From contig JBECUL010000045.1 of assembly GCA_040225955.1 (NCBI GenBank), positions 1-17,358 of the forward strand: a DNA stretch of 17,358 bases. Direction: 5' to 3'. Position numbers and translations under genes: made by a program. Under the pieces are notes generated by a model. It searched no databases, was not told where the DNA came from, and saw nothing but the letters and a program-made list of their open reading frames with translations. This DNA is from Candidatus Asgardarchaeum abyssi. Lineage in GTDB: Archaea; Asgardarchaeota; Asgardarchaeia; Asgardarchaeales; Asgardarchaeaceae. Positions 1 through 5,815 of this stretch are shown piece by piece. Within the stretch, counting starts at the first letter, position 1; every line of letters begins with the position of its first letter.

Positions 1-625
1 CACTAATTAGTTTATTTGTTGCTCTCGAAATAGCTTCAAGCGAGCTTTGACCAGTACCATATCTATTATCAAAAAAATGCTTCATTTTCGCATCATTAAC
101 AGCGATTACAGGAAACGCCAGCACACCATCTCGTTCCATATTTCTTAATCTGATAACACCTGTTGTTGTTTCTTCACAGCCTCCAATAACATGTTCAGCC
201 TCTTTTTTCCTTTTAGTATGAAGGAGGAACATTAAATCTGCACCATCATCTATAATTATATTTGGTTTGGTATCAATAACTCTATTGAGATTCTCGTAGT
301 ATTCTTCTGTTGTTTCTCCAGCCCAGGCATATACAGTAGCAAAATCAGTAACAGCAGCAGCAACATCATCATCCGTAGTTAAAGGATTACAGCTGGTTAT
401 CGTGACTTCTGCGCCTCCTTTAACAAGAGTTTCAACCAAGACTGCTGTTTTTTTCTCTAAATGAAGTGCCATTCCGATTTTTAGACCTTCAAATGGTTTC
501 TCTTTTTCAAACCGTTCTCCAATTTTTCGAAGGACAACCATCCATCGCTTAGCCCATTCAATTTTTTCTCTTCCCTTATCTGCAAGAGATATATCTTTCA
601 CTTTGCTTTTATTTTTAAAAGACAT
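1..625 (-). CDS. ahcY: S-adenosylhomocysteine hydrolase (5' part; runs off the window start)
   Basis: Not in the ORF track. Manual translation from ATG 625: MSFKNKSKVKDISLADKGREKIEWAKRWM...GMALHLEKKTAVL...SCNPLTTDDDVAAA...IIDDGADL...GGCEETTTGVIRL...PVIAVNDAKMKHFFDNRYGTGQS, all hallmark AhcY motifs. GGGTGGT SD-like motif upstream. Confidence 0.97.
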   Translation of the reverse strand, partial: MSFKNKSKVKDISLADKGREKIEWAKRWMVVLRKIGERFEKEKPFEGLKIGMALHLEKKTAVLVETLVKGGAEVTITSCNPLTTDDDVAAAVTDFATVYAWAGETTEEYYENLNRVIDTKPNIIIDDGADLMFLLHTKRKKEAEHVIGGCEETTTGVIRLRNMERDGVLAFPVIAVNDAKMKHFFDNRYGTGQSSLEAISRATNKLIS

Positions 626-785
626 AAAATACCACCCTATATTTTGAATAAACAATTAGCGATAATTATATTAAAGTTATGAAAAATAATAGCACTGCTG
701 AATACTTTTCTCGAATAAGTCTTATAAGGAAGATACGTTAACTATTTTTACTATTAAAGCACATGGTATATAGTGAGGTGGTGAA

Positions 786-1061
786 ATGAAAGTCAGGGCA
801 CATGTATTCATTTCAGGAAGAGTCCAAGGTGTATTCTTCAGAGCACATACGCAAATGATGGCCATGAAACACAATGTAACCGGTTGGGTTAGAAATCTCA
901 GAGATGGCCGAGTTGAAGCTGTTTTTGAAGGAGAATTAAAAGATGTTGAAAAAGTAATAGAATGGTGTCATAAAGGGCCTCCACTAGCAAAAGTTGATAA
1001 AGTTGAAGTTATTTGGGAAGATTACAAAGGAGAGTTTTCTTCATTTGAGATTCGCTATTAA
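786..1061 (+). CDS. acyP: Acylphosphatase
   Basis: [11 protein letters not shown] and [13 protein letters not shown] signatures, C-terminal FEIRY. SD GAGGTG at 775-780. Confidence 0.97.
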
Positions 1062-1161
1062 TTATCTTACTGTTTTTATATTCATTCTTGATGTATTTAT
1101 TTAGAAATTAAAATATATATTATGTCCTAAGATAATATAACAAAGAAATTGAGGGTTTATA

Positions 1162-1914
1162 ATGAGTGATGAAGTTCTGGATGCTCTTCGACATCCTAAA
1201 CGTAGGTTAATATTGGAATTACTTGCACAAAAAGGGCCTCTAACATTTACAGATCTCCTAGAGCTAAGCGGTATTCGTCGAACAAGCGCCCTAGCATTTC
1301 ATTTAAAAAAGCTACGAGGTCTTATAAGTAAGAAGGGAAATGTTTATGTTATAACAGAGGCGGGGATTGAGGCTTTAATGCTAGTAAAAAGTACTAAAAG
1401 ATTAGTTTTTAGACAAACGGCATTTTGGACGATTACTGGCACGCCAATAAATACGATTTCAATGATAACCCAGATAATTATGTTTTTGTATTTCCTTTAT
1501 ATTTCTCTCTTATTGTATGAAAGTATTCGATATTTTAGTTTTTCATCGTTTTTGGCTTTACGTTATATGTACGAAATTGCTGGGATAATTATAGCTGTTA
1601 TTTGGGCTCAGATTCTTTCAATAATACTATTTAAGAAAATAGGCATAATGGAAAAATTGGAAATTAACTTTATTAATTTGCTTAAAGCCTTTATGACAAC
1701 ACCCTATTTTTATGCAGCAGTTTATTATATCTTCATATATATAGGGCTATTGCTTTTTAAGATTGAAGCATATCATTTTCTGAGAGGGCTAATAATATCT
1801 TTCTCCTTGGTTTTACCAACAACTCTTAATTTTGAGGAGGTCAAATCACAAAGTAAGTTATCTATAAAGTTTATAAAAAAGAAACTTGTCTGCTATTTAT
1901 CACCAATAGTGTGA
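1162..1914 (+). CDS. ArsR-like winged-helix DNA-binding domain fused to a multi-pass membrane domain
   Basis: N-terminal DALRHPKRRLILELL...TFTDLL...SALAFHLKKL...YVITEAG is typical of archaeal ArsR/HTH_20 domains. It is followed by about 4 hydrophobic segments. Confidence 0.8.
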   Translation: MSDEVLDALRHPKRRLILELLAQKGPLTFTDLLELSGIRRTSALAFHLKKLRGLISKKGNVYVITEAGIEALMLVKSTKRLVFRQTAFWTITGTPINTISMITQIIMFLYFLYISLLLYESIRYFSFSSFLALRYMYEIAGIIIAVIWAQILSIILFKKIGIMEKLEINFINLLKAFMTTPYFYAAVYYIFIYIGLLLFKIEAYHFLRGLIISFSLVLPTTLNFEEVKSQSKLSIKFIKKKLVCYLSPIV

Positions 1915-2040
1915 AAGTAAAAACTAAATGTTAACTTTTATCATGACTATTTTTATAATTTGCATATGGATGCATCTGAATCGCAACTTTTTTAAAGAGA
2001 ACAATATCCTAAATATTACCAATAAGCAAAGGTGTGTATA

Positions 2041-2322
2041 ATGAAAGTATTCAAAAATGTCTTAATAGATGTTGAAAACGATGACGGGCCAACTACATAC
2101 AGTCTTACAAAATTATATGTCGCTGAAAATAAGAGAGAGCTAAACCAAATTACAGAGTGGCATCAAAGAAACGGGTTTGAAAAAGACTTTGAAGGTATAA
2201 TTTCTAATTCTGATGTTCTTGAGTTAATAAGTAAATTTTTAGTCTCCTTGATTAATAGGAAAATTATTATTTTTAAAAAGAAAAATAACTTTGGCATTGT
2301 TCAGAATTTCGATGAAAAGTAA
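2041..2322 (+). CDS. Small hypothetical protein (93 aa)
   Basis: Open frame with protein-like composition. ATG 2041 is preceded by SD-like AGGTGTG, so it is preferred over GTG 2032. No recognisable family. Confidence 0.5.
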   Translation: MKVFKNVLIDVENDDGPTTYSLTKLYVAENKRELNQITEWHQRNGFEKDFEGIISNSDVLELISKFLVSLINRKIIIFKKKNNFGIVQNFDEK

Positions 2323-2355
2323 AAAATAATAAACCCAGAAAGTCTTATTTTTATT

Positions 2356-2410
2356 GAAGATGATGAAAGCTCCAATACTGAACTATGATGAAGCGATGGT
2401 GTCCTGATTC
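2356..2410 (+). ncRNA. Archaeal dual-guide C/D box sRNA (2'-O-methylation guide)
   Basis: Box C ATGATGA 2360-2366, 11-nt guide, box D' CTGA 2378-2381, box C' ATGATGA 2385-2391, 12-nt guide, box D CTGA 2404-2407. Terminal stem GAA(2356-2358)/TTC(2408-2410) with a 3-nt bulge fits K-turn geometry. Located in an intergenic gap. Confidence 0.93.
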
Positions 2411-2411
2411 C

Positions 2412-2879
2412 TTATCCTTTTAATCTCTTTCTAAGGTCATTAATCTTGAGATTTATTGCAGATAGCTCTGTGTTGTACTTTTTCTCAATAATAGGTCCAT
2501 AAAATTTGAGCAACCTATTTAGCTTTTTTAAAGCAAAATCAAGTTGAGAGTATGACTTAACATTTTTCAACTCATCAATTAGTTCATTCATCTTTATACT
2601 TAGAAAACTATTAATGATTGCCGTGTAAAGTGTCTTTGCGGCCGTGCCTATATTATTTTTAGAGATAGCAAATTTATTATCTTTTGTTCTTTCAACTATT
2701 CCAAAGTCCATTAGATATGCGATAATCCTTACTAAAATCTCTAAGTTAATCCCTAATTTTGATTTTAAAGTTTCAATATCGGTATCTCCATATACTGATA
2801 AATAGGCTATAATTTTATGTAAAATGGGGTCTCCAAGTACTTCGTCAACAGTATCAAATATCTTAAAATCTTCTATCAT
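2412..2879 (-). CDS. Winged-helix (ArsR/MarR/TrmB-like) domain protein with helical C-terminus
   Basis: DPILHKIIAYLSVYGDTDIETLKSKLGINLEILVRIIAYLMDFGIVER...KFAI has the wHTH pattern. GGTGC SD-like motif upstream. Confidence 0.65.
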   Translation of the reverse strand: MIEDFKIFDTVDEVLGDPILHKIIAYLSVYGDTDIETLKSKLGINLEILVRIIAYLMDFGIVERTKDNKFAISKNNIGTAAKTLYTAIINSFLSIKMNELIDELKNVKSYSQLDFALKKLNRLLKFYGPIIEKKYNTELSAINLKINDLRKRLKG

Positions 2880-3056
2880 AGAAAAGCACCATTTTAAATG
2901 TTTTTATTTAATTAATAACTCACACATTTTAAAATCTTCAGTGTCAGATTTTCAAAAAGATTAGGAATAAGTTAATAAGAGTCAAAGGAATAGTGAATCA
3001 ATAAAAAATTCTTATCTTATTATATCTAATGAATCAATAACCAAGGGAGTGATCTC

Positions 3057-4328
3057 ATGTCTCATAGCGAAATGACAGTAATAAGAGGATGGGTTTATAA
3101 AAAGAGGGAGCATAAAAGTATAATATTCATCGATTTAAGAACCGAGAAGGGTATACTTCAGTGTGTAATTAATAAGAATAAAGTCTCACCTGATGTTTGG
3201 AATATAGCTACCAAATTGACTCAAGAATCTTGTATTGAAGTAAATGGTTCCATGGTAGATCAACCTAGAGCACCAGGAGGTAGGGAGCTTCAAGTTTCTG
3301 CCATAAAGGTATACCAAATAGCTGAGTCACCTTACCCTCTTGGTAAGAAAGAACATTCTCCAGATGTACTTATGAGATATCGCCATTTAACTATGAGATC
3401 GCCAAGATACCAAGCCATAATGAAAATAAGAGCTATTGTAATGGAAGCTGCTCGTGAATTTTTCATTAAGAATGGTTGGTATGAGATATCCCCCCCAATC
3501 TTAACATTTACTGCTGTGGAAGGCGGTGCAACATTATTTAAGGTTGATTACTTTGGTTCTGAAGCTTACTTATCTCAGAGCGCCCAACTCTATCTTGAAG
3601 TTATGATATTCTCATTAGAAAAGGTTTGGAGCTTAACTCCTTCATTTAGAGCTGAAAAGTCCAGAACACCGAGACATTTAACTGAATATTGGCATCTAGA
3701 AGCAGAGGCTGCCTGGATGGATATGAATCAATTGATGGAGCTTGAAGAAAATCTTATAACCTATATGACACAAAAAACAATCGAACGGGGTGCTGACTTA
3801 TTAGAATTTCTTGGTGTGAATATCGACGACTTAAAGAAAGTCAGACCACCATTTAAACGAATGTCATATGATAAGGCAATCGAGATTCTCCAGGATATGG
3901 GATTCGATATAACATGGGGCGAAGATTTAGGTGCCGATGAAGAAAGAGCTTTAACCCAGAACTCTAAAGTTCCTCTCTTTGTCTATGGATATCCTCTTGA
4001 GATTAAGGCATTTTACGTTCAAGCAGATCCTAAAAATCCAAAGATTGGACTAACTGCAGATCTCTTAGCTCCAGATGGATATGGCGAAATTACAACCGGT
4101 GGTCAGAGAGAAGTTGATATAGACAGATTAGTTGAAAGAATTAGAAAAGAAGGATTTGATCCCGAATCATATTGGTGGTATCTTGACCTACGAAGATACG
4201 GTTCGGTTTACCATTCTGGGTTTGGATTAGGTATCGAAAGATATTTGCGTTGGCTTTTAAAATTGGATCACATCCGTGAGACAATTCCGTTTCCAAGAAT
4301 GGCTCGCAGAGAAGAATACACTCTATAA
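3057..4328 (+). CDS. asnS: Asparagine--tRNA ligase
   Basis: N-terminal OB-fold (IRGWVYKKR...FIDLR), LSQSAQLYLE, motif 2 FRAEKSRTPRHLTEY, motif 3 HSGFGLGIER. GGQRE (Glu) favours AsnRS over AspRS. SD GGGAGTGA upstream. Confidence 0.92.
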   Translation: MSHSEMTVIRGWVYKKREHKSIIFIDLRTEKGILQCVINKNKVSPDVWNIATKLTQESCIEVNGSMVDQPRAPGGRELQVSAIKVYQIAESPYPLGKKEHSPDVLMRYRHLTMRSPRYQAIMKIRAIVMEAAREFFIKNGWYEISPPILTFTAVEGGATLFKVDYFGSEAYLSQSAQLYLEVMIFSLEKVWSLTPSFRAEKSRTPRHLTEYWHLEAEAAWMDMNQLMELEENLITYMTQKTIERGADLLEFLGVNIDDLKKVRPPFKRMSYDKAIEILQDMGFDITWGEDLGADEERALTQNSKVPLFVYGYPLEIKAFYVQADPKNPKIGLTADLLAPDGYGEITTGGQREVDIDRLVERIRKEGFDPESYWWYLDLRRYGSVYHSGFGLGIERYLRWLLKLDHIRETIPFPRMARREEYTL

Positions 4329-4399
4329 TGTTAAAGCTATTTGTGTTTGAAATAATTAAAAGATATTTTTTATCAGTAGACTCTAACTTAAATTGAATG

Positions 4400-5815
4400 T
4401 TATACATTCTTAGAAATTTCAATTTCTCTACTAACTTTAATTTTCTCCTTTAGTAATATATCTCTCGCTGCAATGACGCCTGAAATGCTTGCTTGCATAA
4501 GGCCTCTTGTTATACCAGCACCATCTCCAATAGTGTATAGATTCTTAATGTATGGACTCTCCATATTGCTTTTTACATCAATGTGTGCTGTATAAAATTT
4601 TGCTTCAACGCCATATAATAAAGTATGTTCACTATATACACCTGGTGCAACCTTGTCTATTGCCTTTAACATCTCTATAATATCAGAAAGATGTCTGTAT
4701 GGAATAACGAAGCTAAGATCACCTGGTACAGCAAGTTTTAAAGTAGGTTCTACAATAGATTTTTTTATCCTTTCTGGTGTGCTTCGTCTACCCATGATTA
4801 AATCTCCAAGCCTTTGAACTATGACAGAACCACCTGATAACATATTTGCAAGCCTTGCAACATGTTTTGCATATTCTATTGGTGATTTAAAGGGCTCTGT
4901 AAAACTACTACTTACCAGTATTGCAAAATTTGTATTGTTGCTCTTTTTATCCCTGTAACTTTGACCATTAACTAAAACAGTATCACTATATACCTCTAAT
5001 GTAACAAAACCATATGGGTTCACACAAAATGTTCTAACTCTATCATCAAATCTTTTTGTAAAGTACTCAAATTTTGGTTCATATAAGACGTTAGTCAGAG
5101 GTTCCATAACCTCTGCTGGGACTTCAACTCTAACTCCTATATCAACTAGGCTCAATTTTAATTTAATACCTAATCGTTTCGCTTCCTCTTTAAACCAATC
5201 AGCCCCTTCACGGCCAGGAGCAACAATTACATACTTTGCGTATACTTTTTCACCATTTTTTAGTTCTATGCCGATGACTTTTTTGTCTTCTGTTAAAATA
5301 CGTTTAACTGGTTTTCTAAAGAAAATATCAATACTTTTGCTTATATGATCATACATATTTCTTAATGCTCTTTGAGCTACTTCGGTACCTAAATGGTTTA
5401 CAGTATATGGTATCAATCTTAAGTCGGCTAAAATCGCCTTTTTTCTTATTTTTTCTACTTCATCCATATCTATTGGATTAGGTGGCTTTATTTTCCCAAA
5501 TCTAGAAAACATTAGGTTAACGTAATTAATTAAATCATCCAAAACTTTATCATCAACATATTCGCTTAACCATCCACCTACTTCCTTACTCAATGTAAGT
5601 TTACCATCACTAAAAGCTCCAGCTCCTCCCCATCCACATAAAAGATGACATGGAACACAACGAATGCATGGTTTTCCCTGAAGAACTTGACAGTGTCTTT
5701 GATCGAGAGGGTTTCCTTTTTCAAAAATTGCTATTTTCAGTCCAGAATTTACAAGTTCTAGAGCTGAGAATATACCCGCAGGTCCAGCTCCAATGATAAC
5801 AACATCATAATTCAC
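4400..5815 (-). CDS. FAD-dependent oxidoreductase/dehydrogenase (COG2509-like)
   Basis: DVVIIGAGPAG Rossmann motif, GWGGAGAFSDGKL, VRTFCVNPYG and IGDGAGITRGL. Cys-rich insert C-x7-C-x2-C-x2-C. GTG start with GGGTGA SD. Confidence 0.88.
   Translation of the reverse strand: MNYDVVIIGAGPAGIFSALELVNSGLKIAIFEKGNPLDQRHCQVLQGKPCIRCVPCHLLCGWGGAGAFSDGKLTLSKEVGGWLSEYVDDKVLDDLINYVNLMFSRFGKIKPPNPIDMDEVEKIRKKAILADLRLIPYTVNHLGTEVAQRALRNMYDHISKSIDIFFRKPVKRILTEDKKVIGIELKNGEKVYAKYVIVAPGREGADWFKEEAKRLGIKLKLSLVDIGVRVEVPAEVMEPLTNVLYEPKFEYFTKRFDDRVRTFCVNPYGFVTLEVYSDTVLVNGQSYRDKKSNNTNFAILVSSSFTEPFKSPIEYAKHVARLANMLSGGSVIVQRLGDLIMGRRSTPERIKKSIVEPTLKLAVPGDLSFVIPYRHLSDIIEMLKAIDKVAPGVYSEHTLLYGVEAKFYTAHIDVKSNMESPYIKNLYTIGDGAGITRGLMQASISGVIAARDILLKEKIKVSREIEISKNV

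Follow-up and report, generated by a model that had tools for sequence, protein, structure and literature searches.

A probable dual-guide box C/D sRNA gene in Candidatus Asgardarchaeum abyssi and the search for the targets of its guides

The DNA analysed here (the window; 17,358 nucleotides of one contig, C45, of Candidatus Asgardarchaeum abyssi) contains an 89-nt gap between two convergent ORFs, whose stop codons lie at 2322 and 2412, and this gap is occupied by a 55-nt stretch that an initial annotation called a box C/D sRNA with two guides directed at a single site near the 5' end of 16S rRNA. Two questions are raised by this locus, namely whether the stretch is a genuine sRNA gene and which RNAs its guides would address. 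As argued below, it very likely encodes a canonical archaeal box C/D sRNA with two guides and looks functional. The product would be expressed, assembled with its protein partners and active, and its substrates most likely lie in the lineage-specific, variable part of the 16S or 23S rRNA, neither of which is found in the assembled contigs of the bin.

Architecture and genomic setting of the sRNA gene

As read from the sequence, positions 2356-2410 (+) hold a complete dual-guide box C/D sRNA in the order GAA-G-ATGATGA-AAGCTCCAATA-CTGA-ACT-ATGATGA-AGCGATGGTGTC-CTGA-TTC (Table 1). The features of the class that are present comprise the C/D boxes, the internal D'/C' K-loop, the guide spacers, the closing stem and the partner proteins in the host. 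Members of the class are discrete RNAs of ~50-60 nt, often circular as well, to which L7Ae binds. The spacers of 11 and 12 nt are within the class range of about 12 nt (10-13), and the terminal stem is short, like that of many archaeal sRNAs. This stem, GAA/TTC, comprises 3 bp and leaves G2359-A2360-U2361 as the three-base bulge of a K-turn, a geometry predicted from the established C/D K-turn model. By itself the RNA has no stable fold (-4.5 kcal/mol, z +1.5), which fits guides, as these need to be unstructured.

The reverse complements of the D and D' guides are GACACCATCGCT and TATTGGAGCTT, respectively. According to the N+5 rule as applied in PMC4644070, G2399 of the D guide would pair with a target C and C2373 of the D' guide with a target G, so that the predicted methylated bases are those bracketed in 5'-GACA[C]CATCGCT-3' and 5'-TATT[G]GAGCTT-3'. 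The initial annotation had described four boxes at consensus with canonical spacing and a K-turn stem, all of which the sequence bears out, and its coordinates, guide complements and N+5 positions proved correct on re-reading.

Table 1. Features of the putative sRNA gene (window positions) and its covariance-model alignments
Feature	Position	Strand	Basis or score
Whole box C/D sRNA gene	2356..2410	+	Sequence; Rfam alignment; sole strict four-box match in genome
A/T-rich spacer upstream of the sRNA	2323..2355	+	Sequence alone
Terminal stem, 5' strand GAA	2356..2358	+	Pairs with TTC 2408-2410; snoPyro_CD closing stem has the same bases
C box ATGATGA (consensus RUGAUGA)	2360..2366	+	Sequence, strict scan, Rfam alignment; 0 mismatches
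D' guide AAGCTCCAATA, 11 nt	2367..2377	+	Sequence; N+5 = C2373
D' box CTGA	2378..2381	+	Sequence, strict scan
Linker ACT, 3 nt, D' to C' (K-loop)	2382..2384	+	Sequence
C' box ATGATGA	2385..2391	+	Sequence, strict scan, Rfam alignment
D guide AGCGATGGTGTC, 12 nt	2392..2403	+	Sequence; N+5 = G2399
D box CTGA	2404..2407	+	Sequence, strict scan; 0 mismatches
Terminal stem, 3' strand TTC	2408..2410	+	Sequence, Rfam alignment
Rfam sR5 (RF01304), model 1-53	2357..2408		39.1 bits, cutoff 40, E 4e-8
Rfam snoPyro_CD (RF00095), model 1-58	2356..2410		38.9 bits, cutoff 45, E 3.9e-7
Rfam sR3 (RF01133), full-length			30.5 bits, cutoff 41, E 2e-6

The upstream ORF (2032-2322) encodes 96 amino acids without a family match and its stop codon ends at 2322, while the downstream ORF (2412-2879, minus strand; 155 aa, stop codon 2412-14) shows weak DUF4423/HTH similarity. 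A single nucleotide separates the sRNA from the stop codon of the latter, so that the RNA would be antisense to the 3' UTR of this gene. Archaeal sRNA genes are commonly found near or overlapping the 3' ends of genes (PMC6009581). The asparagine-tRNA ligase (AsnRS) gene is located at 3057-4328, with the sRNA about 650 nt upstream of it, and the genome encodes a second class-II Asp/Asn-type tRNA ligase paralog (C41:2465-3715, plus strand) sharing 40% identity with this enzyme. In the spacer preceding the sRNA, AAAATAATAAA at ~2323-2333 may be a TATA-like element, situated about 27 nt ahead of the 5' stem, and TTATTTTTATT at 2345-2355 is an oligo-T tract following the stop codon of the upstream ORF; given the window GC of 33%, neither feature is significant. 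A scan for sigma-70 promoters and intrinsic terminators gave nothing useful, the models not being applicable to archaea.

The protein partners are encoded by a fibrillarin gene (C15:10578-11234, 318 bits), an adjoining Nop5 gene (C15:11397-12074, 241 bits) and an L7Ae gene (C16:22870-23142, 110 bits). With these partners, L7Ae would bind both the terminal K-turn (C/D) and the internal K-loop (C'/D'), after which a Nop5 dimer would bridge both motifs and bring two copies of fibrillarin. Each guide would pair with about 10-12 nt of substrate RNA. Counting upstream from box D or D', the nucleotide that fibrillarin would 2'-O-methylate is the one in the substrate that pairs with the fifth position of the guide, that is, the C of the D target and the G of the D' target bracketed above.

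Among about 200,000 species genomes, no other represents the class to which this genome belongs, and the relatives compared below share only the phylum with it. The genome also contains an ESCRT-II/Vps25-like gene (C10:15756-16097), which is absent from all 14 control genomes and supports the Asgard assignment. By word matches, the organism occurs in metagenomes of marine sediment and hydrothermal vents from 17 studies. For window 1900-4400, about 14% of the words sampled are present in two metatranscriptome runs from marine sediment (X19 and X20) and may derive from the AsnRS mRNA or from the sRNA. An independent 14-kb JGI metagenome contig (Ga0164318_10003917, here L034) comes from the same species (about 99% identity) and carries the sRNA stretch with 0 differences; as there are just 9 differences in 2.7 kb, the lack of a SNP in the sRNA is uninformative. 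This contig joins the start of C45 to C114 and C74. Relative to window 721-3477, window 1-720 is inverted on this contig (L034 4417-5136), and L034 2757-4416 is absent from the bin. The discord may be due to a rearrangement or insertion that distinguishes populations, or else to a misjoin at window ~720.

Recurrence of the motif by chance and covariance-model matches

In the bin (2.6 Mb, GC 0.34, about 93% of the genome assembled), the strict four-box pattern has a single match over both strands, which is the sRNA locus itself, and it has 0 matches in 5 block-shuffled genomes. From base composition, our own estimate is about 3e-4 such motifs per genome. Loosening the scan adds 2 further candidates, compared with 2-3 poorer matches per shuffle. 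These two (C13:1748-1796 and C78:8279-8328, both on the minus strand) show 1-2 deviations in the internal boxes, and the D guide of the C13 candidate pairs with conserved 16S GGCAGGUCAGUA in many relatives, but with three G-U pairs.

None of the Rfam families passes for the sRNA in gathering mode, so a standard pipeline would leave the gene unannotated. A covariance-model search, of the kind that the initial annotation had proposed as a check, was also run in E-value mode, where the sub-cutoff alignments of Table 1 are obtained; archaeal C/D models align over their whole span, and the scores fell just under the gathering cutoffs. That the locus is a chance motif, or a decayed and unexpressed relic, is extremely improbable in view of the expected motif frequency and the empty shuffles, the full-length covariance-model matches (E ~1e-7 to 1e-8) and the lack of deviation in any box. 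The putative sRNA gene is well supported, and the original box C/D call is upheld by the boxes, the uniqueness of the scan match, the covariance models, the partner protein genes and the fold.

Candidate targets of the two guides

The guides had been proposed to tile one contiguous target, a tiling which on inspection is a concatenation of the two complements sharing one T. According to this proposal, both guides would pair with a single 22-nt stretch of the organism's own 16S rRNA (~20-41, helix 3/4), methylating C~24 and G~35 and chaperoning folding near the central pseudoknot. It was compared with 30 Asgard rRNAs from relatives (15 16S and 15 23S), which include the closest families by AsnRS identity (f16, 57%; f14, 54%; f12, 51%). 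Two of the 16S genes in relatives are long, that of G011 (L011, 2426 nt) exceeding the normal length by about 900 nt and that of G024 (L009, 1834 nt) by about 350 nt, and the extra length most likely represents introns or insertions.

The best ungapped match of the joined 22-mer in this rRNA set is indeed at 16S position 20, where G022 and G011 match at 15/22. The same position is the top site in a profile test rewarding conserved columns (7.96 bits, next best 1.3), the matching positions are those most conserved among several relatives (GAC...GCTAT.GG), and the 16S of G003 carries the T variant GCTATTGG. However, 98 of 200 shuffled 22-mers (49%) score at least 15 somewhere in the same set, the profile result has P = 0.19, and the guides taken singly have P ~0.5. 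The likeness to the 5' region of 16S reported in the initial annotation is real as a best match, but does not rise above chance. Similarity is no higher in the closest family f16, where the G308 16S reads GACCGCGATGCTGGCGGGCTCA at position 20 (9/22), nor in f19, where that of G034 reads GATGCATCTTATATCCGATGGC (8/22), the stretch at 16S ~20-41 being hypervariable across Asgard lineages. When judged by the published criteria (PMC4644070), which require 9 bp or more with N+5 paired and allow no more than 1 mismatch and 2 G-U pairs, the D and D' guides reach 10 and 9 paired positions in the 30 rRNAs, below the 11 and 10 mostly reached by shuffled guides. None of the sites in any relative's rRNA beats chance, including 16S ~20-41, ~571, ~910 and helix 43 (GTCACCATCGCG).

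An exact search for the D complement with the D' complement 0-30 nt after it, run over 185,579 genomes and 241 M metagenome records, returned the antisense strand of the sRNA gene itself (on L034) and unrelated sequences, mostly a Streptococcus locus, and no rRNA with the joined sequence or with both complements. Contigs of runs X1, X4 and X6, in which the organism is most abundant, and of run X7, aligned to the G022 16S gave hundreds of 16S fragments from many organisms; at the candidate site, the best-supported variants listed are generic archaeal alone (1537 A>G and 1544 T>C), with none assignable to this organism. As judged from C/D RNP structures, a zero-length linker would probably preclude simultaneous occupancy of both guides, which would speak against a contiguous target.

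In favour of such a target, 16S helix 3 is a published hotspot of predicted methylation (PMC4644070; PMC7994747), with predicted sites at C34 (Pca sR53), C35 (Tte sR15) and G36 (Iho sR206) (PMC4644070), and double guides whose two targets lie within 100 nt of each other make up about half of archaeal sRNAs (PMC4644070; PMC7994747). Taken together, a contiguous target at 16S ~20-41 is very improbable; the similarity is at chance level, there is no gain in the closest family and no rRNA in the public contigs searched carries both complements within 30 nt. Just as doubtful is that the sRNA clamps, or sequentially scans, the first-transcribed 5' end of 16S (~20-41) as an early folding chaperone. 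If the contiguous target were true, the guide sequence could serve as a molecular tag linking an rRNA-less, class-level Asgard bin to its 16S. This use had been anticipated in the initial annotation and the idea is sensible, but it yielded no rRNA in the public contigs searched. A helix-3 target would also fall in the published hotspot C34-G36 (PMC4644070) and would not be new in kind.

The best positionally conserved site for the D guide in relatives is the 16S helix-43 hairpin (E. coli ~1356-1371, just before CGGUGAAUACG), where the loop C of GUCA[C]CAUCGCG may be methylated through the D guide, with the D' guide directed elsewhere or orphan. In G001, G012 and G023 this site reads GTCACCATCGCG, which forms 10/12 Watson-Crick pairs with an uninterrupted run of 9 that covers N+5, while GTCATCATCGCG is present in G006, G011 and G022. 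The site is the top profile match for the D target alone (9.16 bits) and satisfies the published limit of one internal mismatch (PMC4644070). In most trials, however, shuffled guides equal or beat it (null mode of 11 paired positions versus 10; profile P = 0.48), and since all relatives keep the U at target position 2, a U-U mismatch at N+2 would probably persist. Helix 43 is accordingly an improbable target of the D guide.

The tRNA search suggested in the initial annotation gave no credible guide complement in the 31 tRNAs detected, the best pairing consisting of 8 Watson-Crick pairs and 1 G-U pair. In the genome, the D-guide complement has one exact match (C25:14085), which is in sense orientation within a 411-aa open frame. 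The D' complement has nine matches compared with about 1.65 expected (P 0.003), which lie in unrelated genes and mostly read ATT-GGA-GCT (Ile-Gly-Ala) in frame, and the excess is attributable to this coding bias. All exact and one-mismatch complements in the genome are in coding or AT-rich sequence and none resembles a structured RNA, and they were rejected as targets. Neither the 31 tRNAs nor the genomic complement matches thus provide a credible target among the assembled RNAs.

One or both guides could be orphans. In that case the RNA would be made and would bind L7Ae, Nop5 and fibrillarin, and, if active, would either chaperone folding or affect the convergent neighbours as an antisense or K-turn element. 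Such a role is consistent with the 28% of Pyrobaculum guides (292/1052) that have no rRNA or tRNA target (PMC6009581), with the frequent location of sRNA genes at gene 3' ends, for which regulatory roles have been proposed (PMC6009581), with the antisense position relative to the ORF at 2412-2879 (-) described above, and with the finding of no target in the assembled genome or in the rRNA of any relative. On the other hand, the rRNA operon, which is the usual substrate, is missing from the bin, so the failure to find a target is uninformative, and the four boxes and the lengths of both spacers are preserved without deviation, as selection for a dual guide would produce. An orphan role is considered an unlikely but realistic alternative. 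The canonical dual-guide sRNA is preferred, with substrates which, being absent from the assembled 93% of the genome, would most likely be found in the unassembled 16S and 23S rRNA.

Relatives and known C/D systems

An ortholog of the sRNA was found in none of the relatives, either with the D-guide half (400 phylum genomes) or with the D'-guide half (30). With the former, at most 3 mismatches being allowed, 2 hits were obtained in the 400 genomes, compared with 4 for the control pattern. Of these hits, that in G006 is part of a real sRNA with unrelated targets, its 3-mismatch similarity being at control level, and that in G357 has no D box; the D'-half hit in G011 is internal to an open frame exceeding 1000 aa, and an f16 sRNA sharing GCTCCAA is not a homolog. 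All four were rejected as orthologs. The lack of an ortholog fits the fast guide turnover reported in the literature (PMC7994747; PMC6009581).

Strict C/D counts are 9-16 per genome in family f16 (G020 and G305-G308), 2-3 in f14 and 0 in f12 and f9, with 0 in the reversed-pattern controls. The number of sRNAs in archaea is linked to growth temperature. The 16S of G308 (f16) has 65% GC, which suggests a thermophile, and the many sRNAs of f16 together with this high-GC 16S are in line with that link. In G020, an unrelated C/D sRNA (C3:48667-48714, minus strand) is situated about 1.3 kb downstream of the AsnRS ortholog (C3:50017-51285, minus strand); as its guides are unrelated, the occurrence of an sRNA near AsnRS in both genomes is probably a coincidence. 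The D' guide of the G006 sRNA (C56:27463-27484 region, L029) pairs at 12/13 positions with its own 23S (GUCGGCUCUUCC region), a predicted pairing which shows that the C/D system would guide rRNA methylation in this phylum.

As an RNA class, C/D sRNAs are abundant and have long been known. The present sRNA appears to be an ordinary member that leaves the understanding of the C/D system unchanged, while adding one well-formed putative methylation guide RNA to the small Asgard catalogue. Both helix-3 targets and the idea of a double-guide chaperone have already been published (PMC4644070; PMC7994747).

Among the curated families, Rfam sR5, snoPyro_CD and sR3 resemble the window sRNA in length (about 55 nt), in the four boxes, the guides of about 12 nt and the short terminal stem, and in the protein partners encoded by the host. 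The similarity is in the boxes and not in the guides, and all three are below the gathering cutoff, so that the window sRNA is, judging from its sequence, a member of the class and not an ortholog of any curated Rfam family. Its host also differs: instead of a hyperthermophile with dozens of sRNAs, it is an Asgard archaeon of 34% GC in which few can be recognised. Compared with Pca sR53, Tte sR15 and Iho sR206 (PMC4644070), the D' target G~35, if right, would lie in the same hotspot. In those sRNAs, however, the helix-3 site is a second and distant target, the main site being in helix 18 (~509/530), and none is described as tiling a contiguous 22 nt, whereas the helix-3 pairing of the window sRNA is at chance level. 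In the sense of Dennis et al. 2015, a double guide has both targets within 100 nt in one rRNA (PMC4644070). Within the Asgard archaea, the C/D sRNAs of other families (G006 and f16) share the architecture of the window sRNA and carry unrelated guides.
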